Shown: positions 14,283-48,096, counted from the first letter of the stretch. The stretch: DNA of 64,000 nucleotides from Marinicella sp. (GCA_965230295.1 OZ246001.1:1088001-1152000); one strand, 5' to 3'. A program made the numbers and translations. Notes: a model not told the origin generated them from the sequence alone.

Positions 14283-17261
14283 ATGCATATGACTTTTAAG
14301 ACTTTGATGTTGGCTGTTGTGTTGCTGTCTATGACCACAGTTCACAGTGAATCGCTCAACATCCAAACCAAGCATCAGCACAGTAAAAAAGCATTCAATC
14401 ACACACAATTCCCGATGTCTCCATTGACTGACCGACTTGAAATCGCCGCTCAATTACTGAAACATGAAACCGGAACATTGCAACCGTTAACCAGCTGGAA
14501 ACTGTATTCACAGGTAAAAACTCCTGGCGGAATTGAAGTTTTTAAGTTTCAGCACTTGCTCAATGGTTATCCGGTTATGGGGGATTGGGCGATGGTGGTG
14601 TTGAATGCTACAGGTCAACCACTGATCACAGAAACCTCAATGGTCATGGTAGATAAAGAACCTGTTTCATTGCCGTTAGACAATGATCGCTGGTTCCAAG
14701 CCACCCATACCAAAGCCGGGCAACAACAGCACACGGCAACCAAGAACCGTATTTGGTATAAAGACAACAATCAATTGATTCCGGCATTGATCAGCCAAAC
14801 CATCATAAGCCAGGATCAACAGCCCCTGTTGTATGCCTTTATTCATGCTGCCGAGGACGGACAGCTACTACAGAAAACATCGTTAACTCACGCTGTTGCT
14901 TACAACTACAAAGTCTATGCAGATAACAATGGTTTACCAGCTGACAGCGTATATGGGTCTACCCAACCACACCCCACAGGCATCCCTGACGATACACAAC
15001 CCAGCGTATTTGCCGATCAAGTCATCGTCAATGTAGAGGAAATTTCCGTTACTGTGGATGATCCCTGGTTACCAGCTGGCGCCACAGAAACAGTGGGTAA
15101 TAATGTCGACATATTTTTTAATTCATTGTTGTTACCTGATGGCACTTACGACAACAATTTCTCTGATGGTTTGGCTTACGGGCCGGGCTTTCAGCCAATT
15201 GATGGTGATTTCCGGGCACAATTGGGTGCTGGTTCAACCTTCGATTATACTTATAACCCGGCCATCTCCGCCGACGATTTTTATCAGCTATTCAGCGACC
15301 CAGTACCATCAAACCCTTCACCCGATGACCCACAAATCAATGCCAAACTGGTACAAGGTTTCTACATGGCAAACGTCATGCGTGATATATTCTATGACGC
15401 TGGTTTTACAGAAGTTGCTGGCAACGCACAAGAGGATAACTATGGCCGCGGCGGCATAGAAAACGACCGCATGATCATCCATGGGAATTGTTTATCTACC
15501 TTTGTATTCACCCCAGAGGACGGGGTTCAACCGGTGATGTGCTTAGGTCGAAACAGTTCCAGTTCAACCAACAAAGATGCCAGCTTTGATTATTCAATAT
15601 TTGCCCATGAATGGTCACACTATATGTACAAAAGGTTGGTACAAGGCCCAAGCTTGCCATCGGGCAATCAGGGCAGCAGCTTGAACGAGGGCTGGGCTGA
15701 CTTAGTGGGCATATTCATGACATTAGATGCTGCTGACTTCAACGCCCCCACCGCTGCAGGTTTTGACAGTGTTTATACGGTTGGAGGGTATTTTAATACC
15801 GATTACAGCCTCAACTACATTGCATATTTTGACCCCAATGGCACCCCGCCAGATGCGCATTTTTATGGTATCAGAAGGTGGCCTTTTGGCGCATCTAATC
15901 CCCTGACATTTCGCCACATCGAGCACTTGCAAGAACTGCCAAACACCCACCCTTATTTTGACTGGAAGGGCCGCTCAAAATTCAATTCTGAATACCATTC
16001 TGCCGGTGAGATATGGGCCGCCAGCACCTGGGATTGCTTCAGAAATATCCTGGCAGATCGCACTGATCGCACTTTCGCTGAGAACAAGAGTCAACTTGCC
16101 GCCTACATCGTCGGCGGTATGGCTGCCACACCTCCTGATCCAACTTATACCGAAGCCAGAAATGGTTTATTACTGGCCATCAACCAATCAGACCCGACAG
16201 ATTGGCAGACCTGTCGCCAGGCTTTTGCAGATCGGGGTATGGGATCTGGTGCCATTTCACCAGACCGTTTTTCAAAAACACATGCGAATGTGGTTGAGCA
16301 CTTTGCCAATGACGACCTTGAAATGACCGTGGTTTCTGCTAACTTGACTGATGATCTGGTTTCATTTGACAATGATGGAATTCTTGACGAATTCGAAACC
16401 GGAAATCTCAATCTGACCCTAAAAAATACCGGCTTCAAAACCATCGAATTCAGTTCAATCGAATTAATCAGCAGTGCCGATTACAGCTTCCCTGCTGCTG
16501 CCAATGAGTTTTTTGATGTGCCTCCCGGTGGAGAAATCGAAGTACTGTTACCCATCAAATTACTGCATAACAGGCAATTCGATGATACTGAGTTTACCCT
16601 GGTGACCGCCTTGTCAACTGACAATGGCAACACTTCTGGCGGCGGTGATACTGTTTTGAGTTTCAAAACACATTTCAACCAGGCTTCATCTGATGCTGCG
16701 ACAGAAACATTGGACTACGAAGCAGCCATGAATTTATGGGCTGAAGAAACCCTGTATCAATATCCTTTCATCAATCCACATTATGAACGTCGAGAGCTGG
16801 CCGGAAATACAAACGTGGTGTTACAGATTGGCGAAGTTTTCGGTGGCTTTGAAAAAACCCTGACCAGCCCCTGGCTGACTTTGGATCCGTTGAATCCAGA
16901 AGTCAATTTAAGCATTAACCACACTTACCTATTAGGCGATACCGGGCAACAGCTTAATGTTGAATACAGTTTCGATGATGAAAACTGGCTTACCATGAGC
17001 ACCCAAAACAACAACCCTGCCATTTTTCTTGGCGACGACCTGAATTACCCAACACTGGGTTTTGAACCCCTGTCTATTCCGGACCTTGACGGCAACACCC
17101 AGTTTAAAATCCGTTTTTATATCAATGCATTCACTGACTATACACCAACTGAAGCCGTTTGGATGATAGATAACATCAGTTTGGATGGTGTCACGGAGCA
17201 GCCTTTCTTAACTGTCACCAGCCAGAGCTCAAATGACTTGATCTTTGTTGATGGTTTTTAA
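14283..17261 (+). CDS. Secreted M36 (fungalysin-like) metallopeptidase with C-terminal beta-sandwich domains and a terminal DLIFVDGF motif
   Basis: Signal peptide, FTP-like propeptide, GNNV, GFTE.AGNAQ, AHEWSH zinc motif, NEGWAD, GIRR.P, EYHSAGEIW, PTYTEARN, FADRGMG. Confidence 0.9.
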   Translation: MHMTFKTLMLAVVLLSMTTVHSESLNIQTKHQHSKKAFNHTQFPMSPLTDRLEIAAQLLKHETGTLQPLTSWKLYSQVKTPGGIEVFKFQHLLNGYPVMGDWAMVVLNATGQPLITETSMVMVDKEPVSLPLDNDRWFQATHTKAGQQQHTATKNRIWYKDNNQLIPALISQTIISQDQQPLLYAFIHAAEDGQLLQKTSLTHAVAYNYKVYADNNGLPADSVYGSTQPHPTGIPDDTQPSVFADQVIVNVEEISVTVDDPWLPAGATETVGNNVDIFFNSLLLPDGTYDNNFSDGLAYGPGFQPIDGDFRAQLGAGSTFDYTYNPAISADDFYQLFSDPVPSNPSPDDPQINAKLVQGFYMANVMRDIFYDAGFTEVAGNAQEDNYGRGGIENDRMIIHGNCLSTFVFTPEDGVQPVMCLGRNSSSSTNKDASFDYSIFAHEWSHYMYKRLVQGPSLPSGNQGSSLNEGWADLVGIFMTLDAADFNAPTAAGFDSVYTVGGYFNTDYSLNYIAYFDPNGTPPDAHFYGIRRWPFGASNPLTFRHIEHLQELPNTHPYFDWKGRSKFNSEYHSAGEIWAASTWDCFRNILADRTDRTFAENKSQLAAYIVGGMAATPPDPTYTEARNGLLLAINQSDPTDWQTCRQAFADRGMGSGAISPDRFSKTHANVVEHFANDDLEMTVVSANLTDDLVSFDNDGILDEFETGNLNLTLKNTGFKTIEFSSIELISSADYSFPAAANEFFDVPPGGEIEVLLPIKLLHNRQFDDTEFTLVTALSTDNGNTSGGGDTVLSFKTHFNQASSDAATETLDYEAAMNLWAEETLYQYPFINPHYERRELAGNTNVVLQIGEVFGGFEKTLTSPWLTLDPLNPEVNLSINHTYLLGDTGQQLNVEYSFDDENWLTMSTQNNNPAIFLGDDLNYPTLGFEPLSIPDLDGNTQFKIRFYINAFTDYTPTEAVWMIDNISLDGVTEQPFLTVTSQSSNDLIFVDGF

Positions 17262-17353
17262 TTGGTAAACATCAAGGTTGCTAATTTCAGTCGGTTTTTA
17301 CATGACCACTGCTGTTGGTTATAATTATAAGATTGACCATCCCGTAAATAACC

Positions 17354-18133
17354 ATGAAAATCATTAAATACGCCATTGCCTGGTTGGCATCAATACTGAT
17401 ATTTACCCAAGTGAATGCCACTTTTTCTATCGTTACCGTTGACCCGGTTACGGGTCAGATAGGCAGTGCAGGTGCGACCTGTATTGGTGCTGAGGATGGT
17501 GCCATTGTGATCAGCGACATTGTACTTGAAACCGGTGTGATACATACCCAATCGTTCTACCTCCCGAACAATCAGAACAATGCCAGAAATCGCATGATTG
17601 CCGGCGACAGTCCACAACAAATCATGGATTGGTTGTTCAACAATGATGCCAACAACGACCCCAGTGCACGACAATACATCGCAGTGGATTTAAATGATGG
17701 CAGCCCAAGAAGTGCCGGCTTCACCGGTCCTGCCTGTTTCACGGAGTTTATCCATGTTACTGGGCCCAATTATGCCATCGCGGGCAACATCCTGATTTCC
17801 GAAGATGTGGTCACTGATATGGAAACCGCATTTTTGACAGCACAGGGATCCTTGGCCGAACGATTGATGGCCTCCTTACAAGCTGCTAAACGGGTCGGCG
17901 CAGACGAGCGCTGTGAACCTTTTGGCATCAGTTCCGCATCGGCATTTATACGAGTTGCCAGACCCTGTGATAAAGACAGCTCATTGGGCAATTTACCACT
18001 GGATCTGAATGTTTGGGTTGAGGACAGCAACCAAATATTCGAGCCCATTGATGAACTACAAAATCAGTTTGACAGCAGTTTGCCACTTGAAATTTGTGAG
18101 TTCGATTTGATTTTTTACGATGGTTTTGAATGA
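17354..18133 (+). CDS. Secreted DUF1028 (Ntn-hydrolase-like) protein with terminal DLIFYDGFE
   Basis: Signal peptide ending VNA, then mature N-terminal TFSIV (Thr nucleophile position); RQY, AGNIL, LAERLM..L.AA..G.D.RC. Confidence 0.85.
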   Translation: MKIIKYAIAWLASILIFTQVNATFSIVTVDPVTGQIGSAGATCIGAEDGAIVISDIVLETGVIHTQSFYLPNNQNNARNRMIAGDSPQQIMDWLFNNDANNDPSARQYIAVDLNDGSPRSAGFTGPACFTEFIHVTGPNYAIAGNILISEDVVTDMETAFLTAQGSLAERLMASLQAAKRVGADERCEPFGISSASAFIRVARPCDKDSSLGNLPLDLNVWVEDSNQIFEPIDELQNQFDSSLPLEICEFDLIFYDGFE

Positions 18134-18159
18134 GTCAGACTTATTGATTTTTGATGGTG

Positions 18160-18534
18160 CTATTGTGATTGCCGAATAATGACCGAGGCTGCCAAAGCCA
18201 ATGTAACCATTACCAAGCCAATCAGCACAGGTAAACGACTCATCTTTCGCTTCGGTATCGTCACCCTCAAATCGCTTTCTGCAATGACATAAATCGACAC
18301 GAATGTATCCCACATGGTTGCTTTGACTGAATTGAACTTTTCCAACCGGGTTATTTGCACGGATTTTTTACCCAAACTTTTCTTGGTTTGAACCTCTAGC
18401 TTCCCAAGCTGTGTTGAACGCTTTGCTGGCTCAACCATGAATTCATAAGTCATGGGCACGCTGCTGAAACTGCGGCTGAACAATTCGAGTTTTTCACCGG
18501 CCTTGATTTCAATCATTTCTTTGGCTTGACTCAT
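18160..18534 (-). CDS. Hypothetical protein with C-terminal TM helix
   Basis: 124-aa ORF filling the gap; hydrophobic C-terminus; no recognised motif. Confidence 0.6.
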   Translation of the reverse strand: MSQAKEMIEIKAGEKLELFSRSFSSVPMTYEFMVEPAKRSTQLGKLEVQTKKSLGKKSVQITRLEKFNSVKATMWDTFVSIYVIAESDLRVTIPKRKMSRLPVLIGLVMVTLALAASVIIRQSQ

Positions 18535-18615
18535 TTTTGACTCAGGTATGAATTAAGACCATGATGCCAGCACCACTGCTTTAAATCCTGAAAAACAGAT
18601 GAAATTTACAAAAAA

Positions 18616-19047
18616 TCAATCCACGTCTTGCACAATGACCACTTCCTCATGGAAAGTGATGTTGTGTTGGGCGCACAATGTTTTTAATTGATCAACTGGC
18701 ACATCTTTGAGCTTAACAGGTTCTCCAGTCTTCAAAAACAGTACCGGAAAAGTACCACCATCCTCGTTCCAGACTTCGACTTTTTCTATGTCATGCCAAG
18801 GGTAATTAACCACACTGCGGTTAACTTGAGAATAAGCCGCAAAGCCAAAGGGGGTGATGAACGTCTTGGGGTTTTTGTTGGGGAAAAAGCGCAGTTTGAT
18901 CATGTTGAAAATCAGGATGATGGGAATCAAAATGATCATCAAAAGCAAAATGGGGATCATCACCAACAGGATCAAAATAAACACCACCCAACTGAGCGGG
19001 CTGCGCCCATTGGGCATGTTACTGAGTATGACTTGTGCCAATTTCAT
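18616..19047 (-). CDS. Hypothetical membrane protein (N-terminal TM, PH-like tail)
   Basis: 143-aa ORF; AAGGA RBS upstream; long hydrophobic stretch; YPWHDI. Confidence 0.65.
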   Translation of the reverse strand: MKLAQVILSNMPNGRSPLSWVVFILILLVMIPILLLMIILIPIILIFNMIKLRFFPNKNPKTFITPFGFAAYSQVNRSVVNYPWHDIEKVEVWNEDGGTFPVLFLKTGEPVKLKDVPVDQLKTLCAQHNITFHEEVVIVQDVD

Positions 19048-19064
19048 GGTATTTCCTTAACTCT

Positions 19065-20504
19065 TTAACCAGCACCCAGCAGGGCTTTGGTTTCTAAAAA
19101 TTCTTCGAAGCCTTGTGGACCCCGTTCACGACCATTGCCAGACTGTTTGTAACCTCCAAATGGGGCCGTGCGGTCCATTTGTGCCCCATTGATGTGGATC
19201 ATGCCAGCTCGCAGTTGATTGGCAACATGGTTAACCCGGTCATTATCAGCTCCTGAAACATAACCGGATAAACCATAGTCATTGTCATTGGCCATCGCTA
19301 TGGCCTGTCGTTCTGTTTCATAGGGCATGAGACACAACACCGGACCGAAAATTTCATGGCGGGCGATTTGCATGTCATTATTGACACGGGTGAAAGCCGT
19401 CGGTTGAACATAATAGCCAGTTTCCAAGCCTTCAGGTTTGCCAACGCCCCCGACCAATATTTCAGCACCTTCATCAATGCCTTGTTGTATCAAAGTTTGG
19501 ATCCGATCCCATTGTAATTGTGACACCACGGGTCCGGCAAAAGTGGATTCCTCATGGGGATCTCCCACTTTGATTTTTTGCATGGTGTTTTTAACGATTG
19601 CTTCGGCTTCAGCCAAGCGTGATGCAGGCACCATCATGCGCGATGGTGCGTTACAGTTCTGACCCGAATTAACACACATGGTTTTAACACCTCCCGCCAC
19701 AGCCTTACCAAAGGCTTCGCTCGACAAATCATCCAGGATGATGTTGGCAGATTTCCCGCCCAACTCTTGGGTCACGCGTTTGATTGATGGTGCGGCATCT
19801 TGTGCCACTGCAATACCGGCCCTGGTTGAACCGGTGAATGAAACCATTTGAATACCCGGGTGTGATGAAATGGCCGATCCAACCACAGGACCATCGCCAT
19901 TGATCATGTTGATCACGCCGCTGGGGACACCGGCAGCGTGTAACACTTCCATCAGTAGATACCCAGAAAATGGTGCCACTTCTGAGGGCTTCCAAACCAC
20001 GGTACATCCGGTCGCCAGTGCCGGGGCCAATTTACAGCCAATCTGGTTCACGGGCCAATTCCAAGGCGTGATGAAGCCACAAACACCGATAGGCTCTTTG
20101 CGGATCAAGGACGACTCTTGTTTGAATTCAAACTCAAAATTATTCAGAACATCTATGGCTGATTTGAAATGCAGGTAGCCAGAAGCCGCTTGATTGGAGC
20201 CACTGAGCCACTGCGGCGCGCCCATTTCTTCGGTGATGGCAGCAGCGATGTCAGCCGATCTTTTTTTGTATTCTGCAGCCACTGATTGCAACAAGTCCAA
20301 ACGCTGTTCCTTGGAAGTTTGGGAAAAGCCTGTAAAAGCGGCTTGGGCTGCTTTAACAGCCGCATCCACATCGGCTGCCGTACCCATTGATATGTGACCA
20401 GCGACTTGTTCTGTGGCCGGGTTGATCACTGCCAATTGCTCGCGGTTTTCTGGCGTCACCCATTGGCCATTGATATAAAATTTTTGATAGTTTCTCATGC
20501 GCAT
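19065..20504 (-). CDS. Aldehyde dehydrogenase family protein
   Basis: ITPWNWP, KPSE, FTGST, ELGGKS, catalytic Cys in NSGQNC, EIFGPV, PFGGYKQSG. Confidence 0.95.
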   Translation of the reverse strand: MRMRNYQKFYINGQWVTPENREQLAVINPATEQVAGHISMGTAADVDAAVKAAQAAFTGFSQTSKEQRLDLLQSVAAEYKKRSADIAAAITEEMGAPQWLSGSNQAASGYLHFKSAIDVLNNFEFEFKQESSLIRKEPIGVCGFITPWNWPVNQIGCKLAPALATGCTVVWKPSEVAPFSGYLLMEVLHAAGVPSGVINMINGDGPVVGSAISSHPGIQMVSFTGSTRAGIAVAQDAAPSIKRVTQELGGKSANIILDDLSSEAFGKAVAGGVKTMCVNSGQNCNAPSRMMVPASRLAEAEAIVKNTMQKIKVGDPHEESTFAGPVVSQLQWDRIQTLIQQGIDEGAEILVGGVGKPEGLETGYYVQPTAFTRVNNDMQIARHEIFGPVLCLMPYETERQAIAMANDNDYGLSGYVSGADNDRVNHVANQLRAGMIHINGAQMDRTAPFGGYKQSGNGRERGPQGFEEFLETKALLGAG

Positions 20505-20516
20505 CTCTACTGGTTG

Positions 20517-22724: not shown

Positions 22725-22780
22725 GTTAATTGAGGGTATCAAAGGCCAACAGTTATACCAGAATACAGGGCATAATTCAT

Positions 22781-23972: not shown

Positions 23973-23997
23973 AAGATGGGGTATTACCTGTTTATAT

Positions 23998-32126: not shown

Positions 32127-32133
32127 GGATTTT

Positions 32134-32787
32134 TCACATTCGCTCTGCTGTCACCTGATAACGCAGCTTACCACCGGTTTGCAGGGCGTTGAATGGGTAG
32201 CAGGTGGTGAGGATCAACTCATCTTCGGTGTTGATCCTCACCTGTTGTTTACTGGAGTCAACAACCTTCAAGTCAATGATGCGATAAACAAAATCACCAA
32301 CTTGCGTATCGATATGGATCAGGTCATTGAGTTTGGCTTTGGCGAGAAACCCAAAATGTGAATCATTGTGCGCACTGATCAGGGTACTCAGTGCCTGACC
32401 TGGCATGCCTGAGGTGATGGATCGTGCAGGACCGAAAGCCATGTTACGCCCACTGGCGCCCTCCAACACATAGCTGGTTTCATTCAATGACGGGAACGTG
32501 AGTTTGGCCACCGGATGGGTGTCAGCCCAATCCCAAGGCTTGTGCGGCTGGCCATCTTTCAGCGTTTGCTCCCACGCATCGGCAATCAAGTATTGGGCCA
32601 AATGGGCCTTGGCCAGCAGATAGACGGAGGAACCTACCTGCCAGCTGCCCACGGTTAACAATGCAGCGATGATGATCTTGATCCATGAGAACTTCTTGGA
32701 CTTTTGACGGGCCCGGAAAGAAGCAGAGGTTTTGGATCCGAAGGTATAATCTTGAGAGTTAGAATTGATCATCATGTGCTCCATCAT
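32134..32787 (-). CDS. Class GN (marine proteobacterial) sortase
   Basis: N-terminal TM; KA.LAQ.LI..AW; PW.WADTHPVA; AFGP; catalytic H in AHNDSHF; LTTCYPF; conserved R in GG.LRY. Confidence 0.93.
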   Translation of the reverse strand: MMEHMMINSNSQDYTFGSKTSASFRARQKSKKFSWIKIIIAALLTVGSWQVGSSVYLLAKAHLAQYLIADAWEQTLKDGQPHKPWDWADTHPVAKLTFPSLNETSYVLEGASGRNMAFGPARSITSGMPGQALSTLISAHNDSHFGFLAKAKLNDLIHIDTQVGDFVYRIIDLKVVDSSKQQVRINTEDELILTTCYPFNALQTGGKLRYQVTAERM

Positions 32788-32811
32788 TCAGCGTTTCTAT
32801 GACATGCCTGA

Positions 32812-34911
32812 TCAAGCGAACCGACGGCTCATGAACAAGGCCATACTCAGCAACAGCATGCCAATCAATAAGTTCCAGCGCCAACCCAATGATCCCTGAG
32901 GATAGGGCACTTGTTGTGCCGCTTTCGCTCGGGCCATTCGGCTGGCATCCGGATTCCTGTCCACCGCCACCAAGGCTGTGAACTCAGTGATTAAATGGTG
33001 TTTCAATGCCAAAGCAATGATGCTGTCTTTCAGCAATCCATGATCACCACCCAACATCAAATCATCGGTCATTTCCTCAACTTTGTTGCGGGCCCACAAG
33101 CGGGCAATGCCAGTGGTGCGATCATCGTCTTTCAGCTTGAATTGTTCTGACCAGGCTTTTTGCTGGTTTCCACCTTCACTGAGACCACTGACCACGAAGG
33201 CAGGTGATCCCAATGCTTTGTTGATGGGCGTCTTGCTGGTAATCACCAAAGGTTGATCCATGTATAAATCAGGTATCACACTGGGGCTTTGTACCACATC
33301 AGAGGTGTTCCAAGTAACTGCCATATCGGTCAATGCAGGACGCGATAATTGGTCAAACAAGTGGCTCATCGATTCATTGACCTGATCCAATCCGGCGATG
33401 TGGGTGTATGTGCCCTTGCCAAACATCGCAGCTTTACTCATAAAGAAATTATTGGGTGCAGGTCCTATGGCTATGGTGAACAATCGAGCATCACCAATAT
33501 CCTGAGCGATCTGATCAAATATCATGGCTTCATTGCCAACCGAACCATCAGTCATGAAAATGATTTGGTTCAAGAATCCCGATTTGATGTTCTCTCTTTG
33601 CATGGCGATTTGTAATGCAGGTGCCATGTTGGTACCGCCGTCTGAACTGAACCCGTCAACAAAATCCAGTGCCATGTTGATGTTATCAGGCGTTCCTGGT
33701 CTGGAAGCCGGGAATAACGCTTTGGCGGTGGAATCAAAATCAATCACGTTGAAATAAGAGCCACTGTCCAAGGTAGACAAAGCATACAACAAGGCATCTT
33801 TGGACTGTTCCAGTGCCATGCCATGCATTGACCCGGAAGTGTCCATGACGTAGGTCATGTTCCTGGGCTGTTTTGATTTTTCTGTGACATTGGGAGGCAA
33901 CACCATCAGCAGCGAATATTCAAATCCATCTTTCTGCTCTGAAAAATAGGCTGCCTTGGGAGTTTTTTCCAATTGAGGATACCAACGCAAGACGAAGTCA
34001 TTGGTGTCATACAATTGTTGATCTTGCAAAGTGATGTTGTGCAAATCGAAATCCTGGTCGATGGCCACATTGTGATGCAATGAGCGCAATTCATCCAATT
34101 CAAAACCTGCGTCTAAATTGACTTTGATGCTGCGATACATTTCATCGCTTACGCCTTGAGTGACTGGCAAATTGGCATTCACTGCAGGTGGAATGTATCT
34201 GGGTTTGATGGCCATGGGTAAGCGCAACTCGTAATACTGTTGCAAATATTTCAAGGTCATTTGGTAGGTGATCTCGACACTGATCATTTCCTGTGGCCCA
34301 ATGTTGGCAATGTCTGAGGTGAATATATTGGGGCGGTATTGTTTCACCATGGTGGCCGTTAACCCTTCTGCTTTGGCTTGCCGGTAAATCCTTTCGGCTT
34401 GTTTTTTTTCGTGAATTTCACCTTCGATAACCCGCTCCCCAATGGTCATCTTCAATTGATAAACGGCTGACTTGTCGGCCATCGGAAACGCATAAACACC
34501 TTCAGTCACCCAATTGTCCTGATCGTTGTAAAAGGTTTGCTTGAGTTTGATGGTGGCGAGTAATCCAAACACATCAACATCATAATCAGTCTGCACCAAT
34601 TTCAAACTGTGGTATTCACCAGTGCTTTTATTGAATTCCATCATCATGCCACTGCTGATGTCATCGAAATTGACCACTTCACGAGCTGAATCAACTGGTA
34701 ACGTTTGGGCCTGAACGTTGATGTGGTACAAAGTGGTATAAAACATGGCCAAGGAAAAGATCACCACATCCTTCCAATTCAAACCCAGTTTCTGATACTT
34801 GCTGGGCGGCTTGGTGACTTCTGCTTGTTCACTGTCATCCTTTTGATTTTGTCTTTTTTGAGCCAATTGTTCCAATTCCCATCGGATTGATTTTCTGCTG
34901 GTTGATTTCAT
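32812..34911 (-). CDS. Marine proteobacterial sortase target protein (VIT + vWA domains)
   Basis: VIT domain (Q.F.N..EGVY.FP...AV), vWA MIDAS DTSGSM, GGT.M, FMTDG, APN; C-terminal YPQGS followed by a hydrophobic helix and RR. Confidence 0.92.
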   Translation of the reverse strand: MKSTSRKSIRWELEQLAQKRQNQKDDSEQAEVTKPPSKYQKLGLNWKDVVIFSLAMFYTTLYHINVQAQTLPVDSAREVVNFDDISSGMMMEFNKSTGEYHSLKLVQTDYDVDVFGLLATIKLKQTFYNDQDNWVTEGVYAFPMADKSAVYQLKMTIGERVIEGEIHEKKQAERIYRQAKAEGLTATMVKQYRPNIFTSDIANIGPQEMISVEITYQMTLKYLQQYYELRLPMAIKPRYIPPAVNANLPVTQGVSDEMYRSIKVNLDAGFELDELRSLHHNVAIDQDFDLHNITLQDQQLYDTNDFVLRWYPQLEKTPKAAYFSEQKDGFEYSLLMVLPPNVTEKSKQPRNMTYVMDTSGSMHGMALEQSKDALLYALSTLDSGSYFNVIDFDSTAKALFPASRPGTPDNINMALDFVDGFSSDGGTNMAPALQIAMQRENIKSGFLNQIIFMTDGSVGNEAMIFDQIAQDIGDARLFTIAIGPAPNNFFMSKAAMFGKGTYTHIAGLDQVNESMSHLFDQLSRPALTDMAVTWNTSDVVQSPSVIPDLYMDQPLVITSKTPINKALGSPAFVVSGLSEGGNQQKAWSEQFKLKDDDRTTGIARLWARNKVEEMTDDLMLGGDHGLLKDSIIALALKHHLITEFTALVAVDRNPDASRMARAKAAQQVPYPQGSLGWRWNLLIGMLLLSMALFMSRRFA

Positions 34912-35069: not shown

Positions 35070-35088
35070 GTCTAGGCTCTGATTCCTG

Positions 35089-36372
35089 TCAGAAGGAAGG
35101 ACAGGTAGGTGGAATAACTGGACCTTCAAATCCAGTGGCGAAGATTAAATCTCCTTCAAAACCGGATTTGAAAATAATGGGACCTGCCGGGCCCCCTCCA
35201 CGATTCTGGGAACGCGGTATTGCGAAAGGCAAACTACTGCCATCACCAAATGGATAAGGATCAATGCTGTCAGGCAAAGTTGTGATGGTTCCATCACTGA
35301 CATTAATCCAGCGACCCGTGTTTTCACTGGCAAAAATGGCCACCAGTTTATTTTGTTCACTGAACATCAAACTGGTCAGAACACCGGTTGAACTGCCTGG
35401 ATCAGGGTAGTTGGTACAACTGGCTTGCATGGTATTTGAGTCCACTTCGATCAGCACATCAGTGGTATCAAATGACATGGTATCCAAAGCATAGTAATTA
35501 CCATTGACCGGACTGACGGCGAAATCATTGATGCCATAATCCAACATGCCCGTACTGCCCAAGCAATCTGTGACTGCCTGATCCGCGTTACCATTGGCAA
35601 TAAAATCCGCTACAACACATTGTGAAAAGGTGTTGGTGCGGTCTCTGAATTGATTCATCACAGCAGCACAAGTGGCATCTGTGGTGGTATCAGCTTCTGA
35701 CCATGCAGCAGGAATCACACCGCCGTTGGCTGCAGTCAAATCAGCACTGGTTACTTGCCCAATCATGATCCGGGGCACCTGGTATAACACCTCTCCAGTG
35801 CCCGCCATCACATCAGCACTGGATTGATAGTTGGTTTTATAACCCAATAAATACATGTTGCCTGATTGATCAAACGAAGAGGCCGTGTGTACGATTGGAA
35901 TGACTTGCTCATTGTCTGGAGGTAAAACAAGGTCTTCCGCTGGTGGTTGTATTGAACCAATGTTTTGGTAGCCACCATCATTGCCTATTCTAAACACATT
36001 GACATCATCAGCCACCATCATATCCCCAGGTTGACCTGGTGAAGGAAATGGCATGGTTAATTCCAGATGGGTGCCTATACCCATTGAATCAGTAGGCATC
36101 AAGCCATATAAGAACCGGTCACTTGGATTCAAGCCCAAACCATCAATGGGATTGGGTAAAGTGCCACAATTATTCAGTGTATTGACAAAAGTCTGATCTG
36201 ACATGTTGGTACACTGCCTGTACAATCGGCTGTTGCCAAATAAATCAGAACTGATGCTGAAAGCTTGATTGTCTGTATCCTGAAAGGAAGTGGTGATATC
36301 CGGAACACACAATGGACCACCCGCTTGCGCACCAGAGGCAACAAACAGACCCACACACAGTAATTTCTTCAT
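35089..36372 (-). CDS. Secreted beta-propeller-like protein (DUF6923-like) with two tandem IFxxGFE motifs
   Basis: Signal peptide (..AQA); blade-like motifs GLGLNPSDRFLYG, FDQSGNMY, DFAVSPVNGNYY; C-terminus PIIFKSGFE-G-DLIFATGFE-GPVIPPTCPSF. Confidence 0.7.
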   Translation of the reverse strand: MKKLLCVGLFVASGAQAGGPLCVPDITTSFQDTDNQAFSISSDLFGNSRLYRQCTNMSDQTFVNTLNNCGTLPNPIDGLGLNPSDRFLYGLMPTDSMGIGTHLELTMPFPSPGQPGDMMVADDVNVFRIGNDGGYQNIGSIQPPAEDLVLPPDNEQVIPIVHTASSFDQSGNMYLLGYKTNYQSSADVMAGTGEVLYQVPRIMIGQVTSADLTAANGGVIPAAWSEADTTTDATCAAVMNQFRDRTNTFSQCVVADFIANGNADQAVTDCLGSTGMLDYGINDFAVSPVNGNYYALDTMSFDTTDVLIEVDSNTMQASCTNYPDPGSSTGVLTSLMFSEQNKLVAIFASENTGRWINVSDGTITTLPDSIDPYPFGDGSSLPFAIPRSQNRGGGPAGPIIFKSGFEGDLIFATGFEGPVIPPTCPSF

Positions 36373-37133: not shown

Positions 37134-37157
37134 AAAACTGTTTTATCAGGGTGTGGA

Positions 37158-37198
37158 ATGGCCGCTTGGTGCTGCATGCATCAAGTGGCTATTTTTTT
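37158..37198 (+). terminator. Rho-independent terminator
   Basis: ATGGCCGCTTGGTGC...GCATCAAGTGGCTAT stem (with G-U pairs) running into T7. Confidence 0.7.
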
Positions 37199-37219
37199 GT
37201 CATGGGAAATATGAAAAAC

Positions 37220-40603: not shown

Positions 40604-40604
40604 A

Positions 40605-41883: not shown

Positions 41884-41886
41884 TGC

Positions 41887-42099
41887 TCAAGGTTTGAGAA
41901 ACACTGGCTGGTTGGGTTCAATCCAACCCATTTTTGCGGCCAAAATGATGAACAGAAACAACAAGACGCTCAAGGCCACTCGAACAGTTAAAAACCGCAC
42001 AGTATTTTGACTTTGACCCTTACCTTTCACCAAATAAAACATGGCAGAGCCGAGGCTGAACAGGATGAACAGTAGCATGACAACAATGAGGTATTTCAT
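41887..42099 (-). CDS. Twin transmembrane helix small protein (DUF2909/HIG1-like)
   Basis: SLGSA.FYL...LT.RV.LS...GWI.P. Confidence 0.85.
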   Translation of the reverse strand: MKYLIVVMLLFILFSLGSAMFYLVKGKGQSQNTVRFLTVRVALSVLLFLFIILAAKMGWIEPNQPVFLKP

Positions 42100-42148
42100 A
42101 AGTGGGTATCGCTTCGTTTAAGTGGCGTTATTTTAATGGATTAAACGT

Positions 42149-42175
42149 AAAAAACCCATCAAAGTGATGGGTTTT
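42149..42175 (-). terminator. Rho-independent terminator after coxC
   Basis: AAAACCCATCA-AAG-TGATGGGTTTT hairpin with an A6 tract. Confidence 0.75.
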
Positions 42176-42201
42176 CAACGTCAGAATTATGTTTTATCGA
42201 T

Positions 42202-43074
42202 TCAGATGATGTAGACAAATATAAACAGTCCCAACCAAACCACATCAACAAAGTGCCAGTACCATGCCACGGCTTCAAAACCGAAGTGACTTTCTGGACG
42301 GAAGTGACCTCGAATCACCCGAATGGTGATCACCGCGATCATGATGGCACCTAATGTCACATGCATGCCGTGGAAACCGGTCAACATAAAGAAGGTGGAT
42401 CCATAAATACCTGAAGATAGTTTCAAGTTCAGGTGTTTATAAGCTTCAACATACTCTTCTGCTTGATAGAACAAAAAGACGGCGCCCAAGATCACTGTCG
42501 CAATCAACCAAATGATCGTTTGGCTGCGGTTATTGGCCCTTAAAGCATGGTGTGCAATGGTGATGGTGACCGAACTGGCCAATAACAACAAGGTGTTGAT
42601 CAAGGGTAAATGATAAGGGTCGATCAGCTCAAATCGGCCATTCAATTCTCCAGGACCATTGGTTGGCCAGACCCCTTCATAACCTGGATAGAGGACTTCG
42701 TTGGTCGATAAACCAGTACCTTCACCACCCAACCAGGGCACTGAAAAGTTACGTGCATAAAACAAGGCGCCAAAGAAGCAGGCAAAAAACATCACTTCTG
42801 AAAAAATGAACCAAATCATACCCATGCGAAATGAGGTATCAACCTGGGTGTTGTACAGTTTGTCTTCGCTTTCTTTGATGACTTCACCAAACCAACCAAA
42901 CATCATCCATAAAATGATGGCAATTCCCAGATACAAAACCCAAGGCGTTCCCGGATTCTCACTGTTCAATTGATTGATGGCACCCAATACGGTTACGGTT
43001 AAACCAATGGAACCAACAATTGGCCATTTGGCCAGATGTGGCACGTAATATTGATCTTTACTAACTTCTGACAT
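42202..43074 (-). CDS. coxC: Cytochrome c oxidase subunit III
   Basis: FIFSEVMFF, NT.LLL.SS, FFMLTGFHG.HV, WYWHFVDVVW. Confidence 0.96.
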   Translation of the reverse strand: MSEVSKDQYYVPHLAKWPIVGSIGLTVTVLGAINQLNSENPGTPWVLYLGIAIILWMMFGWFGEVIKESEDKLYNTQVDTSFRMGMIWFIFSEVMFFACFFGALFYARNFSVPWLGGEGTGLSTNEVLYPGYEGVWPTNGPGELNGRFELIDPYHLPLINTLLLLASSVTITIAHHALRANNRSQTIIWLIATVILGAVFLFYQAEEYVEAYKHLNLKLSSGIYGSTFFMLTGFHGMHVTLGAIMIAVITIRVIRGHFRPESHFGFEAVAWYWHFVDVVWLGLFIFVYII

Positions 43075-43092
43075 GCTAATTGCCCCTAATAT

Positions 43093-43662
43093 TTAAATTT
43101 TTTCATGTATGGCATCACCAGCAGCCTGTTGTTCTGCGGTCATGCGATTTTTGTTAAAAAAGGTGTATGACAAAGTCAACACCTCAATGTCTTTCGGTAT
43201 GTCCGAACTGACGATAAAAGTCACCGGCATATTTTTCTTTTCACCAGGTGTCAGCAACTGCTCGGTAAAACAAAAGCACTCTGTTTTACTGAAATAAAGA
43301 GATGCTTCGTTGGGTGCCACGCTGGGAACCGCTTGACCAGTGACATCGATTTCAGCAATGTTTTGTGCAATGTACTCTGTTGAGTACAGTTTACCAGGCA
43401 CCACTTCCATGGAAAATTGTTGTGGTTTGAATGACCAGGGCAAATCACTGTTGACCGTGCCATCAAACTGTACCGTCACGGTGTGGTTGGCAGTTTGGTT
43501 GGTCACGTCTTCAGTGGCAATGACCCCTGTTTTACCATTCAAACCAGTGACTTCACAAATCACGTCATACAAAGGCACCAATGCAAAACCGAAGCCAACC
43601 ATAATGGCGGACACCAACAGGCCTTTCCTCAATACCCGACTGTTCGCTTGATCACGTTGCAT
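43093..43662 (-). CDS. ctaG: Cytochrome c oxidase assembly protein CtaG/Cox11
   Basis: VPLY..C..TG.NG, K.ECFCF, LSYTFF. Confidence 0.95.
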   Translation of the reverse strand: MQRDQANSRVLRKGLLVSAIMVGFGFALVPLYDVICEVTGLNGKTGVIATEDVTNQTANHTVTVQFDGTVNSDLPWSFKPQQFSMEVVPGKLYSTEYIAQNIAEIDVTGQAVPSVAPNEASLYFSKTECFCFTEQLLTPGEKKNMPVTFIVSSDIPKDIEVLTLSYTFFNKNRMTAEQQAAGDAIHEKI

Positions 43663-43780
43663 GAGTCACCACTATATAGACTGCCCAAGAAAAGAACCCC
43701 AAAGCCACCACTGCCAATATCAAGGCTGTCTTTCTGGCGGCTTTGCGCTGTGCTTGGATTTGTTTATCGTCCTGGTTCAT
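43652..43780 (-). CDS. 42-aa small membrane protein between coxA and ctaG (absent from the ORF track)
   Basis: Hand translation gives MNQDDKQIQAQRKAARKTALILAVVALGFFSWAVYIVVTHAT*. It starts 7 bp after the coxA stop and overlaps the ctaG start. Confidence 0.75.
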   Translation of the reverse strand: MNQDDKQIQAQRKAARKTALILAVVALGFFSWAVYIVVTHAT

Positions 43781-43787
43781 CGTTCAA

Positions 43788-45407
43788 TCAGTGAACTTTA
43801 CCATGAGCCATCTTATCCAGGTCTACTGGACCAAATTCTTCGAACGTGTGGTATGGCGCTGGAGAAGGAACAGTCCACTCCAAACCTTTGGCACCTTCCC
43901 AAACTTCATCAGTCGCTTTTTCACCACCTTTAACGGTTTTCCACACAATGTAGATGAAGAAGACTTGTGCCAGACCAAAGGCAAACCCGCCGATCGATGA
44001 CCACATGTTGAATTCTGCAAATTGGGTGGAGTAATCCGGAATACGACGTGGCATACCTGCCAAGCCCAAGAAATGTTGTGGGAAGAACAAGACATTGACT
44101 GAAATGGTTGACCACCAGAAGTGAATTTTACCCAACCGTTCGTTGTACATGTGGCCAGACCATTTTGGCAACCAGTAGTAAGCGCCGGCAATGATGGCAT
44201 AAACGGCGCCTGTTACCAGTACATAATGGAAATGCGCCACAATGAAGTAAGTGTCATGGTATTGCAAATCAACTGGAGCCAAGGCCATCATCACACCAGA
44301 AAAACCACCAATGGTGAACAGAATCACAAACGCCAGTGAGAACAACATGGGCGTCTCAAAGGTCATTGAACCTTTCCACATGGTCGCCACCCAGTTGAAG
44401 ATTTTCACCCCTGTTGGCACCGCAATCATCATGGTGGCATACATGAAGTACAACTCACCACCCAACGGCATCCCGACTGAGAACATGTGATGCGCCCATA
44501 CGATGAATGACAAGAAGGCAATGGCAGCTGTGGCATAAACCATCGATACATAACCAAACAATGGCTTACGAGCGAAGGTAGGTATGATTTCAGATACCAC
44601 ACCAAAGGCCGGCAGAATCATGATGTAAACTTCAGGGTGTCCAAAGAACCAGAATATGTGTTGGAACAACACCGGATCACCCCCACCAGCGGCATTAAAG
44701 AAGCTGGTGTCAAAATAACGGTCAGTCAGTAACATGGTCACCGCTCCGGCCAACACAGGCATCACAGCAATCAACAGGAATGCAGTGATCAACCACGTCC
44801 AGACAAACAATGGCATGTTCAAGTAACCCACATTAGGGGCACGCATGTTCATGATGGTGGCAATCACATTGATCGCACCCATGATGGACGAGATACCCAT
44901 CAGATGCACTGCAAATACCAAGTATGCCACGTTGTGACCACCTTGAAGCACCAAAGGAGGATACATGGTCCAACCACCTGCTGGCGCACCACCTTCCATA
45001 AATAAGGTTGATGACAACAAAGTAAAAGCAAAAGGCAGGATCCAAAATGACCAGTTATTCATTCTTGGCAAGGCCATATCAGGCGCACCAATCATCATTG
45101 GAATCATCCAGTTGGCCAAACCTACAAAAGCTGGCATGACCGCACCAAATACCATGATCAAGGCATGCATGGTGGTCATTTGGTTAAAGAAGTCAGGTTC
45201 TACAAATTGCAGACCTGGTTGAAACAATTCCAATCGAATGATCATCGCCATGGCGCCACCCAAAATAAACATGGCAAAAGCAAAGATCAAATACAAAGTA
45301 CCAATGTCTTTGTGGTTGGTGGTCATCAACCATCTTTTCACAAAGCCTTTGGGTTTGTGGTCATGGTGGTCGTGAGATACTTCATCATGTGTGATATCGT
45401 GACTCAT
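43788..45407 (-). CDS. ctaD: Cytochrome c oxidase subunit I (A-type)
   Basis: TTNHKDIG, GWT.YPPL, WFFGHPEVY, WAHHM, AHFHY, GMPRR. Confidence 0.98.
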   Translation of the reverse strand: MSHDITHDEVSHDHHDHKPKGFVKRWLMTTNHKDIGTLYLIFAFAMFILGGAMAMIIRLELFQPGLQFVEPDFFNQMTTMHALIMVFGAVMPAFVGLANWMIPMMIGAPDMALPRMNNWSFWILPFAFTLLSSTLFMEGGAPAGGWTMYPPLVLQGGHNVAYLVFAVHLMGISSIMGAINVIATIMNMRAPNVGYLNMPLFVWTWLITAFLLIAVMPVLAGAVTMLLTDRYFDTSFFNAAGGGDPVLFQHIFWFFGHPEVYIMILPAFGVVSEIIPTFARKPLFGYVSMVYATAAIAFLSFIVWAHHMFSVGMPLGGELYFMYATMMIAVPTGVKIFNWVATMWKGSMTFETPMLFSLAFVILFTIGGFSGVMMALAPVDLQYHDTYFIVAHFHYVLVTGAVYAIIAGAYYWLPKWSGHMYNERLGKIHFWWSTISVNVLFFPQHFLGLAGMPRRIPDYSTQFAEFNMWSSIGGFAFGLAQVFFIYIVWKTVKGGEKATDEVWEGAKGLEWTVPSPAPYHTFEEFGPVDLDKMAHGKVH

Positions 45408-45422
45408 AATAAATCCCCTAAA

Positions 45423-46577
45423 TTATTGTTTCATGCTTTTGACAGTGGCTGGCTGAACAACGTCGCCGACTGAATTGCCAAAAGAATTTCGTGTGTAAGT
45501 AATGGCTGCAGCGATGTCAGTTTCTGACAACAAACCACCAAAAGCTTGCATGGCAGTTCCTGGCTTACCATTCAAAACCAATTCGATTTGATCAGCAGCA
45601 GGTCCGACCACCAGTTCACTGCCAGCCAGAGCCGGAAAGGCCGGAGCCATGCCAGATCCATTGGCTTGGTGACAAACTGCACATTGGCTGTTGTAAACTT
45701 CTTCACCTTTGGCCATCAATTGGTCCATGGTCCATTCAGTTTCAACCAGTTCAGCCTCTTCGGCTTGCTCGCCTTTTTGATCAGCAACCCATTGGGCATA
45801 ATCTTCTTTGCTCAAGACTTCAACCACAATCGGCATGAACCCATGGTCTTTGCCGCATAACTCAGCACATTGACCGCGGTAGGTACCAGGGGTTTTCACA
45901 TTGGTCCAGGCTTCGTTAACATACCCAGGTATGGCATCTCTTTTCCAACCAAAGTCAGGAACCCACCAGGCATGAATCACATCATCAGCCGTTAACAAAA
46001 AGCGGATGTTGGTGTCTACTGGAATCACCAATGGGTTGTCTACATCCAACAGGTAGTTTTCGACGGTGTTGGGATCAACGCCTGAGCCTTTTTGTCTGGC
46101 CAGGTTACTGTCTTTAGACAGGGTACTTAAAAAGCTGATGCCTTCTTCCATGTAGTCGTATTTCCACTTCCACTGGTAGCCGGTGATTTTAACCGTCATG
46201 TCAAACTGCATGCGCTTGCCATCATCATCGGTTGGGTTTTCCATTTGGATCAAGGCGCGGGTTGCTGGAATCGCAATCACCACCAAAATCAAAATCGGAA
46301 TGATGGTCCAGATCACTTCAGCTGTGGTGCTGTGGCTGAATTGTTCTGGCTTGTACCCTTTGGATTTTCGGTGGGTAAAGATTGAAACAATCATTGCCCC
46401 GAACACCACGATACCAATCACGATACAAATCCACAGTGTGAATGTATGCATCCCATAGGCGGTTTCACTGAATTCCGTGACGCCTTTTCTTAAATTCAAT
46501 CCATATTCTGCTGCTGACATGGACGAAACCAACAATCCAGCAATCAGCATCATGAATTTCATTTGTGCTTTTTTCAT
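45423..46577 (-). CDS. coxB: Cytochrome c oxidase subunit II with C-terminal cytochrome c domain
   Basis: YQWKW.Y, DVIHAW, CuA ligands CAELCGKDH.FM, CAVCH heme c motif. Start set at MKKAQ. Confidence 0.96.
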   Translation of the reverse strand: MKKAQMKFMMLIAGLLVSSMSAAEYGLNLRKGVTEFSETAYGMHTFTLWICIVIGIVVFGAMIVSIFTHRKSKGYKPEQFSHSTTAEVIWTIIPILILVVIAIPATRALIQMENPTDDDGKRMQFDMTVKITGYQWKWKYDYMEEGISFLSTLSKDSNLARQKGSGVDPNTVENYLLDVDNPLVIPVDTNIRFLLTADDVIHAWWVPDFGWKRDAIPGYVNEAWTNVKTPGTYRGQCAELCGKDHGFMPIVVEVLSKEDYAQWVADQKGEQAEEAELVETEWTMDQLMAKGEEVYNSQCAVCHQANGSGMAPAFPALAGSELVVGPAADQIELVLNGKPGTAMQAFGGLLSETDIAAAITYTRNSFGNSVGDVVQPATVKSMKQ

Positions 46578-46740
46578 AAATTTTACCCTAATGAATTTTT
46601 GAAAACCAAGACCTTGAACGTGTGGCAATGATTATTGTTCGATGCATGCCACACATAACACCTCACAAAAGCTCGTCATTTCTATGACTCAGGCCAATCA
46701 TAAACCCATGTTTTCATTGAAAGTTTAAATGTTCAATGGA

Positions 46741-46757
46741 TGCGACTAAATGTCGCA
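46741..46757. promoter_or_regulatory. Putative RegA/PrrA/RoxR-type binding site upstream of the cox operon
   Basis: Perfect palindrome TGCGAC-TAAAT-GTCGCA matching GCGNC-N5-GNCGC. Confidence 0.6.
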
Positions 46758-47004
46758 CAGGTCAGACGCGGCAATTCTACCATGTGATATGCCAAATATC
46801 TGCAACTAGTGTTATTTTTTTGTTAGCAATGGACCCAATAATCTTGAATTAGGCAATGAATTGATGCCACCCGTCCTTTGCCCAATGGTTCAGTTCCGAA
46901 AAAAATAAAAAAAGTTGTGTTGTTTTACACAGCTCAATCATCTCAATAACGAAGCACCAGATATTTGACGGTGCTTTGTGAACATTTATATGAGGAAACA
47001 GACC

Positions 47005-48096
47005 ATGAAAAATGACTACTTACTAACGATTTTATTATTATTGATTTCGCTACCGATTTTCGCGGCAGAATTTTGTGTCACAAGCAGTGCTGGATTACAA
47101 GCGGCCTTGAATTCGGCTGCAAACAACAACCAACACGATTTGATTAAAATTGCAGAAGGCTCTTACACCACCCCAGGTAGTGAGTTCAGCTACACTGAAA
47201 GTGTCGGCTGGGATCTAGAAATTTCAGGTGGCTGGACTGAGTTTTTTGGCAATCCATGTGGTCAACAACTTTCTGGCAACCCATTCAATACAGTTTTGGA
47301 CGGTGACAGCAGCAACCGGATCATGAACATCCGTTCAGGCGGCTCTTCAGACATCACCATCAGCAGTTTGGCCTTCATTAACGGTGGGACTTCAAACCTA
47401 TCAAATGGCGGAGGTTTGCGATTCTGGCCAACCAACACGAACAATCACACCGGGAAAGTGGTTATTGAAAGATCTGCATTCATCAACAATACGGCTGAAG
47501 AAGCCAGTGCAATTTCCTTTCTCAGTGCAGGGTTACGGAATCACATACGCAACAATATATTCGTTGTAAACAGCACAACCAACGGTTCAAATACTGTCGT
47601 CATCAACCAGGACTTGTCAGCAGGCATTTACTTCACCAACAACACCATGGTTACCAATTCCGGAGATGCGGCCAACAACCGCGGTGGTTTAAGAATTTTC
47701 ACCACCTCGACATCAAATGCTTACGTGGGAAATAACGTGCTGTATGACAACGGCAGTGAGGATTTTAGAGTCACCGGCTCAGGACAGGTATACTTGCATT
47801 ATAACAATGTTGACCTGGTTTTCGGCGCAAGCTCAAGCAGCCTCATAGGTAATTTTTCTGCAGATCCCGAGTTCAATCCAGGCATATTAAACTACACACC
47901 TTCATATGGATCACCCTTGGTTAACCAAGGGTATGACCCTCCCAATATTGTTCCATTTCCAACACCTTTTAATCTGGCATGGTTTGAAGGCACAGTAGAT
48001 ATCTTTGGCAACCCCAGAAAACAAGATGGGAAAGTCGACATTGGAGCGGTTGAGACTGAGCCAGAACCGCCTATATTCGCAAATGGGTTTGAATAA
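47005..48096 (+). CDS. Secreted beta-helix protein with a choice-of-anchor-Q-like C-terminal domain and terminal PPIFANGFE
   Basis: GAGGA RBS before the ATG at 47005; signal peptide; Asn-rich beta-helix repeats (GGGL, FINN, N..N); GSPLVNQG...D.FG.PR..G.VDIGAVE. Confidence 0.8.
   Translation: MKNDYLLTILLLLISLPIFAAEFCVTSSAGLQAALNSAANNNQHDLIKIAEGSYTTPGSEFSYTESVGWDLEISGGWTEFFGNPCGQQLSGNPFNTVLDGDSSNRIMNIRSGGSSDITISSLAFINGGTSNLSNGGGLRFWPTNTNNHTGKVVIERSAFINNTAEEASAISFLSAGLRNHIRNNIFVVNSTTNGSNTVVINQDLSAGIYFTNNTMVTNSGDAANNRGGLRIFTTSTSNAYVGNNVLYDNGSEDFRVTGSGQVYLHYNNVDLVFGASSSSLIGNFSADPEFNPGILNYTPSYGSPLVNQGYDPPNIVPFPTPFNLAWFEGTVDIFGNPRKQDGKVDIGAVETEPEPPIFANGFE

Follow-up and report, generated by a model that had tools for sequence, protein, structure and literature searches.

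Why do four secreted proteins of otherwise unrelated fold, all encoded in one stretch of a Marinicella sp. genome, finish in almost the same nine residues? An initial annotation of this stretch (GCA_965230295.1, OZ246001.1:1088001-1152000; 64,000 nucleotides, called the window in the following) had seen in the shared C-terminal tail, of the type D-L-I-F-x-x-G-F-E, a candidate signal for sorting or surface docking. The tail is real: exported proteins carry it at their C-termini throughout the proteome, and as a tag it is specific to one clade. It occupies the position of a bona fide signal for outer-membrane secretion and is found together with a classical type II secretion system (T2SS), whose cargo it may mark. 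The four tail proteins of the window are listed here, with positions counted from its first letter.

14283-17261, plus strand: M36 (fungalysin-type) metallopeptidase, 992 amino acids, with signal peptide (PF02128, E 2.5e-42)
17354-18133, plus strand: DUF1028 (Ntn-hydrolase-like) protein, 259 amino acids, with signal peptide (PF06267, E 9.5e-36)
35089-36372, minus strand: secreted protein with two tandem tail copies, 427 amino acids from the translation
46978-48096, plus strand: parallel beta-helix, choice-of-anchor-Q-like secreted protein, 372 amino acids from a GTG start (363 in the database form)

All four tails were located in translated open reading frames (ORFs) where the annotation had seen them. 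The M36 peptidase ends in ...NDLIFVDGF, with the tail DLIFVDGF at 17235-17258 and the stop codon at 17259-17261; it scores 25.4 bits in the tail matrix described below. In the DUF1028 protein, which ends in ...FDLIFYDGFE, the tail DLIFYDGFE occupies 18104-18130, or 18104-18133 with the stop (26.5 bits), and the beta-helix protein ends in ...PPIFANGFE (48067-48093, with the stop 48067-48096; 26.7 bits). The remaining protein carries PIIFKSGFE-G-DLIFATGFE at 35125-35181, followed by 11 residues (GPVIPPTCPSF). The translations of all four begin with an n-h-c pattern as in signal peptides. The tail matrix scores only the tail proteins in the window, which agrees with the earlier remark that no cytoplasmic or membrane protein there ends in this way. 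The family labels survived in part. M36 and DUF1028 were confirmed, whereas the choice-of-anchor-Q label is sub-threshold (20 bits against model NF041518, cut-off 25) and the protein called 'propeller-like' had no family match in Pfam or NCBIfam.

The complete genome is a single contig of 4,008,074 bp with 44% G+C (G000 in our comparisons, where G-numbers denote genomes, f-numbers families and g-numbers genera). A six-frame scan with [ILVM][FYW]..GF gave 345 matches. A stop codon follows within 0-4 residues in 81 of these; elsewhere there were about 5-27 matches per 5-residue bin. Six false matches (membrane proteins, an OmpW-like barrel and a RecX-like protein) were excluded by eye. After this curation the strict motif was terminal in 80 genes, with the consensus D(59/80)-[LVP]-I(70)-F(74)-x-[D37/N26]-G-F-[E39/D25/Q6]. 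A position matrix made from these 80 tails, applied with a threshold of at least 10 bits at the C-terminus, called 137 of the 3378 genes that a crude greedy ORF rule had predicted, and the tail then reads D-[LVI]-I-F-x-[DNS]-[GDS]-F-[ED]. Only 30 internal positions reached 10 bits (1,178,693 positions were scored, 30,402 of them C-terminal). As controls, the reversed matrix gave no C-terminal match and shuffled C-termini gave one. The tail pattern far exceeds chance. The tag described on four proteins is thus real, but it extends to about 137, and its motif is wider than had been written: the 57 genes beyond the strict set are mostly of the DLIFADDFE type, with Asp, Ser or Asn in place of Gly.

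Seventy-six of the 137 tails stop 0-1 residue past the second Phe and 29 add 4-8 residues. The final residue is Glu in 48, Asp in 28, Asn in 13, Gln in 11, Pro in 8, Phe in 8 and another residue in 21. Nine genuine copies are found away from the C-terminus, either immediately behind the signal peptide, between domains, or in front of a common C-terminal domain of about 90 residues. This domain is found in three large proteins with an internal motif (genome coordinates 1421560-1424421, 1502239-1506363 and 3172793-3178705, all outside the window), ends in all three in a D-x-D-G-D-G motif resembling a Ca-binding site, and matches no Pfam family. On the nucleotide level the 137 tails are encoded by 135 distinct 27-mers, and identity is 0.71 at codon positions 1 and 2 compared with 0.42 at position 3. 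Since the 27-mers are diverse and the first two codon positions are more alike than the third, selection acts on the peptide; the codon diversity also rules out that the tail arose from a repeated DNA cassette. As a separate observation, 33 of the 137 carriers have a Cys within 13 residues upstream of the tail, where windows placed at random in these proteins give 12.4 +/- 3.1, and one group of FG-GAP paralogues terminates in GF[DEG]C[IMN].

The carriers are exported proteins. By a crude rule, signal-peptide-like N-termini, the Sec or Tat type that T2SS substrates have, occur in 127 of the 137 carriers and in 1209 of the 3241 other genes; a stricter rule gives 61/137 and 635/3241. Both rules are rough. 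The 80 strict carriers fall into 42 clusters without detectable similarity outside the tail. Among 20 carriers picked by hand to represent clusters, 15 have Pfam matches and five have none. The peptidases in this set are an S8 subtilase with MAM, an M12, an M10 with PPC, an M6-like and a trypsin-like enzyme. The other domains are FG-GAP repeats, LTD with Big_5 and an endonuclease/exonuclease, a lactonase-type propeller with Calx-beta, DUF285, ThuA and MAM. The carriers are typical extracellular proteins, mostly of the exoenzyme type. The tag thus exists under protein-level selection on exported proteins of unrelated folds, and the idea of a modular C-terminal signal shared by unrelated Sec-exported proteins, first based on four cases, is now supported by at least 42 unrelated families.

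Two of the families in the window show how the tail behaves in evolution. For the beta-helix protein, 52 homologues with identities from 100 down to 30% were compared; the closest one from a named organism is that of Marinicella litoralis (67%). A count by eye finds the tail in 49 of them, following a linker of variable sequence; DLIFWGIFE and RLFTDRFE are among its variants. The homologues without a tail are P0041, P0042 and one fragment of 217 residues. In one paralogue of this family (L180, G030:C31) a hydrophobic helix and RRRA stand in place of the tail, a further example of anchor swapping within one family.

For the DUF1028 protein we compared the best 120 homologues, of which 28 are short and 92 long. 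The tail is terminal in all 28 short proteins (243-263 amino acids). The long proteins (>275 amino acids, 61-76% identical) contain it in none of 92 cases, and 90 of the 92 have instead the C-terminal domain (CTD) of the type IX secretion system (T9SS), PF18962; named sources of these long forms are Dokdonia, Aquimarina, Marixanthomonas, Aequorivita and other Flavobacteriia. In the long forms PF18962 comes after '...FEPIDELQ.Q[FY]D', with which the catalytic domain of the tail forms also ends. Because both follow this one end, the tail and the T9SS CTD occupy the same slot. The 61-76% identity with genes of Flavobacteriia suggests horizontal transfer of the DUF1028 gene between phyla, in which a T9SS CTD would have been exchanged for the 9-residue tail. 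The M36 peptidase resembles, below cut-off in each case, NCBIfam subfamilies of M36 that are defined by MYXO-CTERM, GlyGly-CTERM (rhombosortase) or T9SS dependence. The initial annotation had placed the tail in the position of known sorting signals, and both proteins bear this out.

How widely is the tail distributed? The DNA pattern for I-F-x-[DN]-G-F-[ED]-stop has 7-55 matches in each of the 24 other genomes of the same family, where the same pattern read backward gives 0-1. In other orders of the class, five of 298 genomes have one match each and none has more. A scan of public genomes, one per species, for D-x-I-F-x-[DN]-G-F-E-stop found at least 120 loci. The loci listed come from the genera Marinicella (litoralis, pacifica, marina, sp. 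W31), Dokdonella, Rudaea, Aquimonas, Pseudolysobacter and Ahniella, and from metagenome-assembled genomes (MAGs) of Rhodanobacteraceae, Lysobacterales and 'Alcanivoracaceae', with single MAGs of Thermoanaerobaculia, Alphaproteobacteria and Chromatiales. To judge from these pattern scans, the tail is confined to one gammaproteobacterial order, and the annotation was right about similar tails on Xanthomonadales-like proteins. A relaxed pattern (D-x-x-F-x-[DNSG]-x-F-[ED]-stop) was then applied to 121 genomes of the order. It matches in all genomes of families f1, f3, f4, f6, f9 and f11, and in 14/14 genomes of f7 with only 1-6 matches each. The f7 tails are variant and carry extra residues (LF.DRFE type: DGLFQDRFEP, PLLFSDRFESGG), and the pattern undercounts them. 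Family f8 has 0-2 matches per genome, which is near noise, and f2 a single match in 1/15 genomes. Family f12 is split, with 9, 14, 24, 31 and 5 matches in five genomes, none in eight and one in another.

The initial annotation knew of no machinery for such a tail. The genome has three secretins, which are PilQ and those of an Xps-like and of a classical T2SS; the T2SS loci, in genome coordinates and all outside the window, are these.

857-868 kb: Xps-like T2SS with subtype-b GspM (PF10741)
654370-659829: classical T2SS, gspCDEF
2607984-2611115: classical T2SS, gspG-K
2630100-2632512: classical T2SS, gspLMN

The classical T2SS is thus split over three loci, and its GspC consists of a T2SSC domain and a PDZ domain, the latter at residues 196-288. 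We determined a phylogenetic profile over 62 genomes of the order, in which tails were counted by the relaxed pattern and genomes with at least four were scored as positive. A strong GspC match was defined as PF11356 at E<1e-15, and GspL by PF05134; gspL is encoded 2 Mb away from gspC in this genome and is therefore unlinked. The 23 genomes with a strong GspC have 47, 67, 2, 9, 14, 24, 31, 5, 1, 1, 4, 1, 16, 8, 12, 21, 1, 10, 5, 7, 18, 24 and 25 tails. The 39 genomes without it are those of f2 (0-1 tails), nine of f12 (0-1), those of f8 (0-2) and G032 (5). Hence 18/23 genomes with a strong GspC are positive, compared with 1/39 without. The profile of GspL resembles that of GspC, and GspL is present in G032, where GspC is missing; when genomes with GspC or GspL are counted together, the separation is 19/24 against 0/38.

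The same separation appears within smaller groups. All 15 genomes of f2 have 0-1 tails and no strong GspC, and the tail-poor f8 has GspC in 0/14. Family f12 has tails together with GspC in five genomes and neither in nine. In genus g303, G407 has GspC, GspL and four tail proteins, and G392 is without any of them; two of the four G407 tail proteins have no homologue at all in G392. The tails therefore behave as cargo of a T2SS should, being found where the system is present and lost in its absence. The Xps-like T2SS was also considered as the machinery and set aside, since PF10741 occurs in 60/62 genomes and is uninformative. A machinery candidate has thus been added to the earlier picture. Of the two functions suggested at the outset, the co-occurrence favours a secretion-recognition signal over a donor strand that would dock proteins on a surface or S-layer scaffold.

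The explanation that we prefer, and to which we give an even chance, is that the tail labels proteins for export by the clade's classical T2SS and is perhaps read by the PDZ domain of GspC. A carrier would cross the inner membrane by the Sec pathway with its N-terminal signal peptide and fold in the periplasm, where the exposed short C-terminal strand would mark it as cargo of the classical T2SS. The GspC PDZ domain would bind the tail by beta-strand addition, and its loop G-x-R-x would hold the free carboxylate or the terminal acidic residue. From these comparisons of sequence we infer that the T2SS would export the tail proteins, that it would recognise them by the tag and that it would do so through the PDZ domain.

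PDZ domains bind C-terminal peptides, and their canonical ligands have a hydrophobic last residue (P0). The PDZ domain is kept in all 20 GspC orthologues fetched from tail-positive genomes and aligned. At the place of the carboxylate-binding loop they have G-[VLMFYA]-R-[VLM], with Arg in 19 of 21 sequences including that of G000, and Lys and Gln in one each. In the divergent GspC of two tail-less f2 genomes this loop is G-F-T-V, with Thr at the position of Arg, a difference that may be taken as a hint in favour of PDZ reading. According to PMC12369372, GspC PDZ domains select subsets of T2SS cargo, as with EpsC and VesB in V. cholerae and, as cited there, with OutC and PelI in Dickeya. The GspC PDZ domain seems to be the most plausible reader of the tail, but we hold this part of the proposal only tentatively.

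Several observations weigh against this explanation. The co-occurrence may reflect only cargo status or joint inheritance and not reading of the tag. Related genomes are not independent, so that Fisher p-values for the contrasts above overstate them and are indicative only, and the DNA patterns count only part of the tails. G032 has five tails and GspL but no GspC match, and G343 has 25 tails and GspC but no GspL match. Five genomes with strong GspC or GspL (four of f7, one of f5) score only 1-2 tails; the low f7 scores arise, at least partly, because the tails of this family are variant. Six tail-less f2 genomes give moderate GspL (PF05134) matches, and two of these six, G414 and G426, have a divergent second T2SS with a confirmed T2SSC-plus-PDZ GspC. 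More generally, T2SSs with a PDZ-bearing GspC are common in tail-less bacteria, as the class sample with its five single matches in 298 genomes illustrates. The ligand itself is also atypical for a PDZ domain, the last residue being Glu or Asp in 76/137 tails where a hydrophobic one would be expected. A strict recognition of the carboxylate is disfavoured because 29/137 tails are extended by 4-8 residues and nine copies are internal or lie just after the signal peptide.

These last copies would fit a peptide that docks independently of its position, and they bring up a different role for the tail: the T2SS would export the carriers regardless of it, and the tail would then retain them by docking as a donor beta-strand on a surface scaffold or on lipopolysaccharide. 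Many beta-sandwich domains have a first strand (F-x-D-[DG]-F-E) that the tail resembles, and one carrier ends in ...VFSDGFESGDTSAWSASCP. One candidate scaffold is a family of secreted 469-amino-acid proteins. Its gene comes immediately behind those for the Xps-type secretin and a small lipoprotein in the positive genomes inspected, and it is followed by genes for a 411-amino-acid protein of unknown function, a parvulin-type peptidyl-prolyl isomerase and an ABC transporter. The member in this genome lies at C1:855496-856905, outside the window, with 10 paralogues elsewhere; a further locus is L121:2496-3905:-. By blastp the genome has 11 paralogues (12 matches in another search), and there are more than 3837 homologues, all unnamed. 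The family has no match in Pfam or NCBIfam and no meaningful sequence match in the PDB, where a low-complexity stretch matches designed ankyrins. Besides being multi-paralogous and adjoining gspD, it is linked to the tails in the profile, as 17/36 genomes with the family have at least four tails and 0/24 without it. It is absent where tails are absent in f2 and f12 but present in 13/14 genomes of f8 and in G392, which have 0-2 tails, so that its agreement with the tail is poorer than that of GspC and GspL. With this correlation running only one way, the family was rejected as the machinery. One of its paralogues itself carries the tail, and the family may thus be mere cargo. A scaffold with repeated receptor domains was not identified in this analysis. 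Retention at the surface is an unlikely account of the tail.

The signal could also act within the periplasm, where the TPR region of a Ser/Thr kinase paired with an extracytoplasmic function (ECF) sigma factor, or a PDZ protease, would read the tails of unexported or misfolded cargo and tune expression or degrade the cargo. It is known that TPR and PDZ domains recognise C-terminal peptides, and the C-termini (YxF) of outer-membrane proteins (OMPs) activate DegS. Genes for Ser/Thr kinases with a TPR region and for ECF sigma factors (PF07638) are the commonest non-carrier neighbours, at 9 and 6 of 120 foreign tail loci, followed by winged-helix proteins with TPR at 5; in this genome four of 21 such kinases abut a tail gene, as do 128 of 3298 other genes. 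Local regulation of a neighbouring exoprotein gene explains this adjacency more simply, however, and for 15 of the 21 kinases no tail gene lies within a distance of three genes. A stress signal would, moreover, need neither to replace a T9SS secretion domain nor to track one T2SS, and we consider such sensing or quality control improbable. Another explanation does without any common partner: the tail would be a structural cap, completing or protecting the final beta-element (an edge strand or the 'velcro' of a propeller), or would simply shield the C-terminus from tail-specific proteases. It agrees with the position of the tail in FG-GAP proteins, 3-8 residues past the last blade strand (..SYVVFG), and with the Cys enrichment upstream (33/137 carriers), and a terminal acidic residue would disfavour proteases of the Prc type. 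Against it stand the occurrence of one 9-mer on 42 or more unrelated folds (Ntn-hydrolase, proteases, beta-helices, propellers), its exchange with the T9SS CTD and its loss together with one T2SS, which make a cap quite improbable. There is finally the chance that the signal has already been characterised and was missed here; short motifs are hard to model, and NCBIfam holds many models of C-terminal sorting signals. The tail peptides matched no NCBIfam model at E<=10, the CTERM models included, and the C-terminal parts of the four full-length proteins matched none at E<=0.01. The homologues are named 'hypothetical protein', 'DUF1028 domain-containing protein' or 'choice-of-anchor Q', and no description of the motif was found in the full-text literature, supplements and subscription journals being outside the reach of that search. 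We regard this last explanation as highly improbable, and these profile searches agree with the annotation, which had called the tail uncharacterised.

The relation of the tail to known signals helps to define what it is. The T9SS CTD of Bacteroidota (PF18962) is, like the tail, a modular C-terminal signal on folded, Sec-exported proteins of many families, with dozens to about 100 carriers per genome. Unlike the tail, it is a folded beta-sandwich of about 70-80 residues, is cleaved by a sortase-like protease and belongs to a different machine; the tail has nine residues and tracks a T2SS. PF18962 matched none of the four window proteins, whose tails are 8-9 residues long, and the tail is thus not a member of this family. 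Short aromatic C-terminal strands at or near the carboxylate are also found in OMPs, in which the Y-x-F end is bound by the DegS PDZ domain and the beta-signal by Bam, in both cases in the periplasm and by beta-strand addition. These signals reside on integral beta-barrels with an aromatic last residue, whereas the tail carriers are soluble enzymes or repeat proteins and the last residue is Phe in only 8/137. Dockerins, which bind cohesins in the cellulosome, and PTS1 (SKL-COOH, bound by the TPR domain of Pex5) likewise place one small C-terminal module on many enzymes for one receptor domain. The dockerin, however, is a Gram-positive domain of about 70 residues that folds and binds Ca, and PTS1 serves import in eukaryotes, so that the analogy is one of logic only.

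The tags of exosortase, rhombosortase and myxosortase (PEP-, GlyGly-, MYXO- and IPTL-CTERM) are interchangeable and occur on the same enzyme families as the tail, and GlyGly-CTERM cargo such as VesB also uses a T2SS. They differ in their build, a motif with a transmembrane (TM) helix and a cluster of basic residues, and in their cleavage by an enzyme of the membrane. The tail proteins end 0-8 residues past the second Phe, with no hydrophobic helix and no cluster of Arg or Lys, so that the earlier statement that the tail lacks both a TM helix and a basic end holds. The genome does contain, next to the Xps-type T2SS cluster, a membrane protein associated with exosortase H (NF041730, E 4.5e-48), and a simple regular expression finds one protein with a C-terminal anchor of TM segment plus basic residues (loci 868007-868615 and 820214-821107 in genome coordinates, outside the window). 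With only this one candidate substrate of the anchor type, exosortase H was judged unrelated to the tail.

Another related case is cargo selection by the GspC PDZ domain. In the pairs EpsC-VesB and OutC-PelI the GspC bears a PDZ domain, as here, and the cargo has its signal towards the C-terminus (PMC12369372). That signal is a folded Ig or Fn3 domain, used by one or few substrates, and no linear motif is known for it. The tail differs in being linear, of nine residues and present on about 137 proteins, and its binding to a PDZ domain is a prediction.

Next to the beta-helix gene of the window lie two genes for regulators of the kind mentioned above, which are not part of the tag.

48103-50685, minus strand: Ser/Thr kinase with a TM segment and a TPR region, beside the tail gene 46978-48096
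50682-51248, minus strand: ECF sigma factor, paired with the kinase

The genome has about 21 kinases of this Ser/Thr kinase plus TPR type. No transport machinery was found among the neighbours of the 120 foreign tail loci, and the kinases, sigma factors and winged-helix proteins with TPR were rejected as the tail machinery, as they are regulators rather than transporters. Adjoining the gene with the two tandem tails, at 32134-34911 on the minus strand of the window, are a small sortase-like protein with a TLxTC-type motif ('LILTTCYPF') and a 699-amino-acid vWA protein with a C-terminal TM segment, which may be a proteobacterial pair of sortase and target.

What do these results mean for protein export in this order? 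According to PMC12369372, T2SS cargo signals are currently seen as structural, with no linear signal. How a T2SS chooses its cargo has been an open question for decades, and a short tag tied to a T2SS would make it directly testable. In its strongest form, which we consider possible but doubtful, our proposal would make the tail the first linear and transplantable T2SS signal: a 9-residue tag, read by the GspC PDZ domain, that would send about 4% of the proteome (perhaps one fifth of the Sec-exported proteins) through one of two co-resident T2SSs and that would functionally replace the T9SS CTD after horizontal gene transfer. With a tag tied to one T2SS, the T2SS secretome could be predicted across the order, including the wastewater and soil genera Dokdonella and Rudaea, and the tail might serve as a compact export tag in biotechnology. 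Even without a PDZ reader, a tag on about 137 proteins per genome amounts to an undescribed sorting system.

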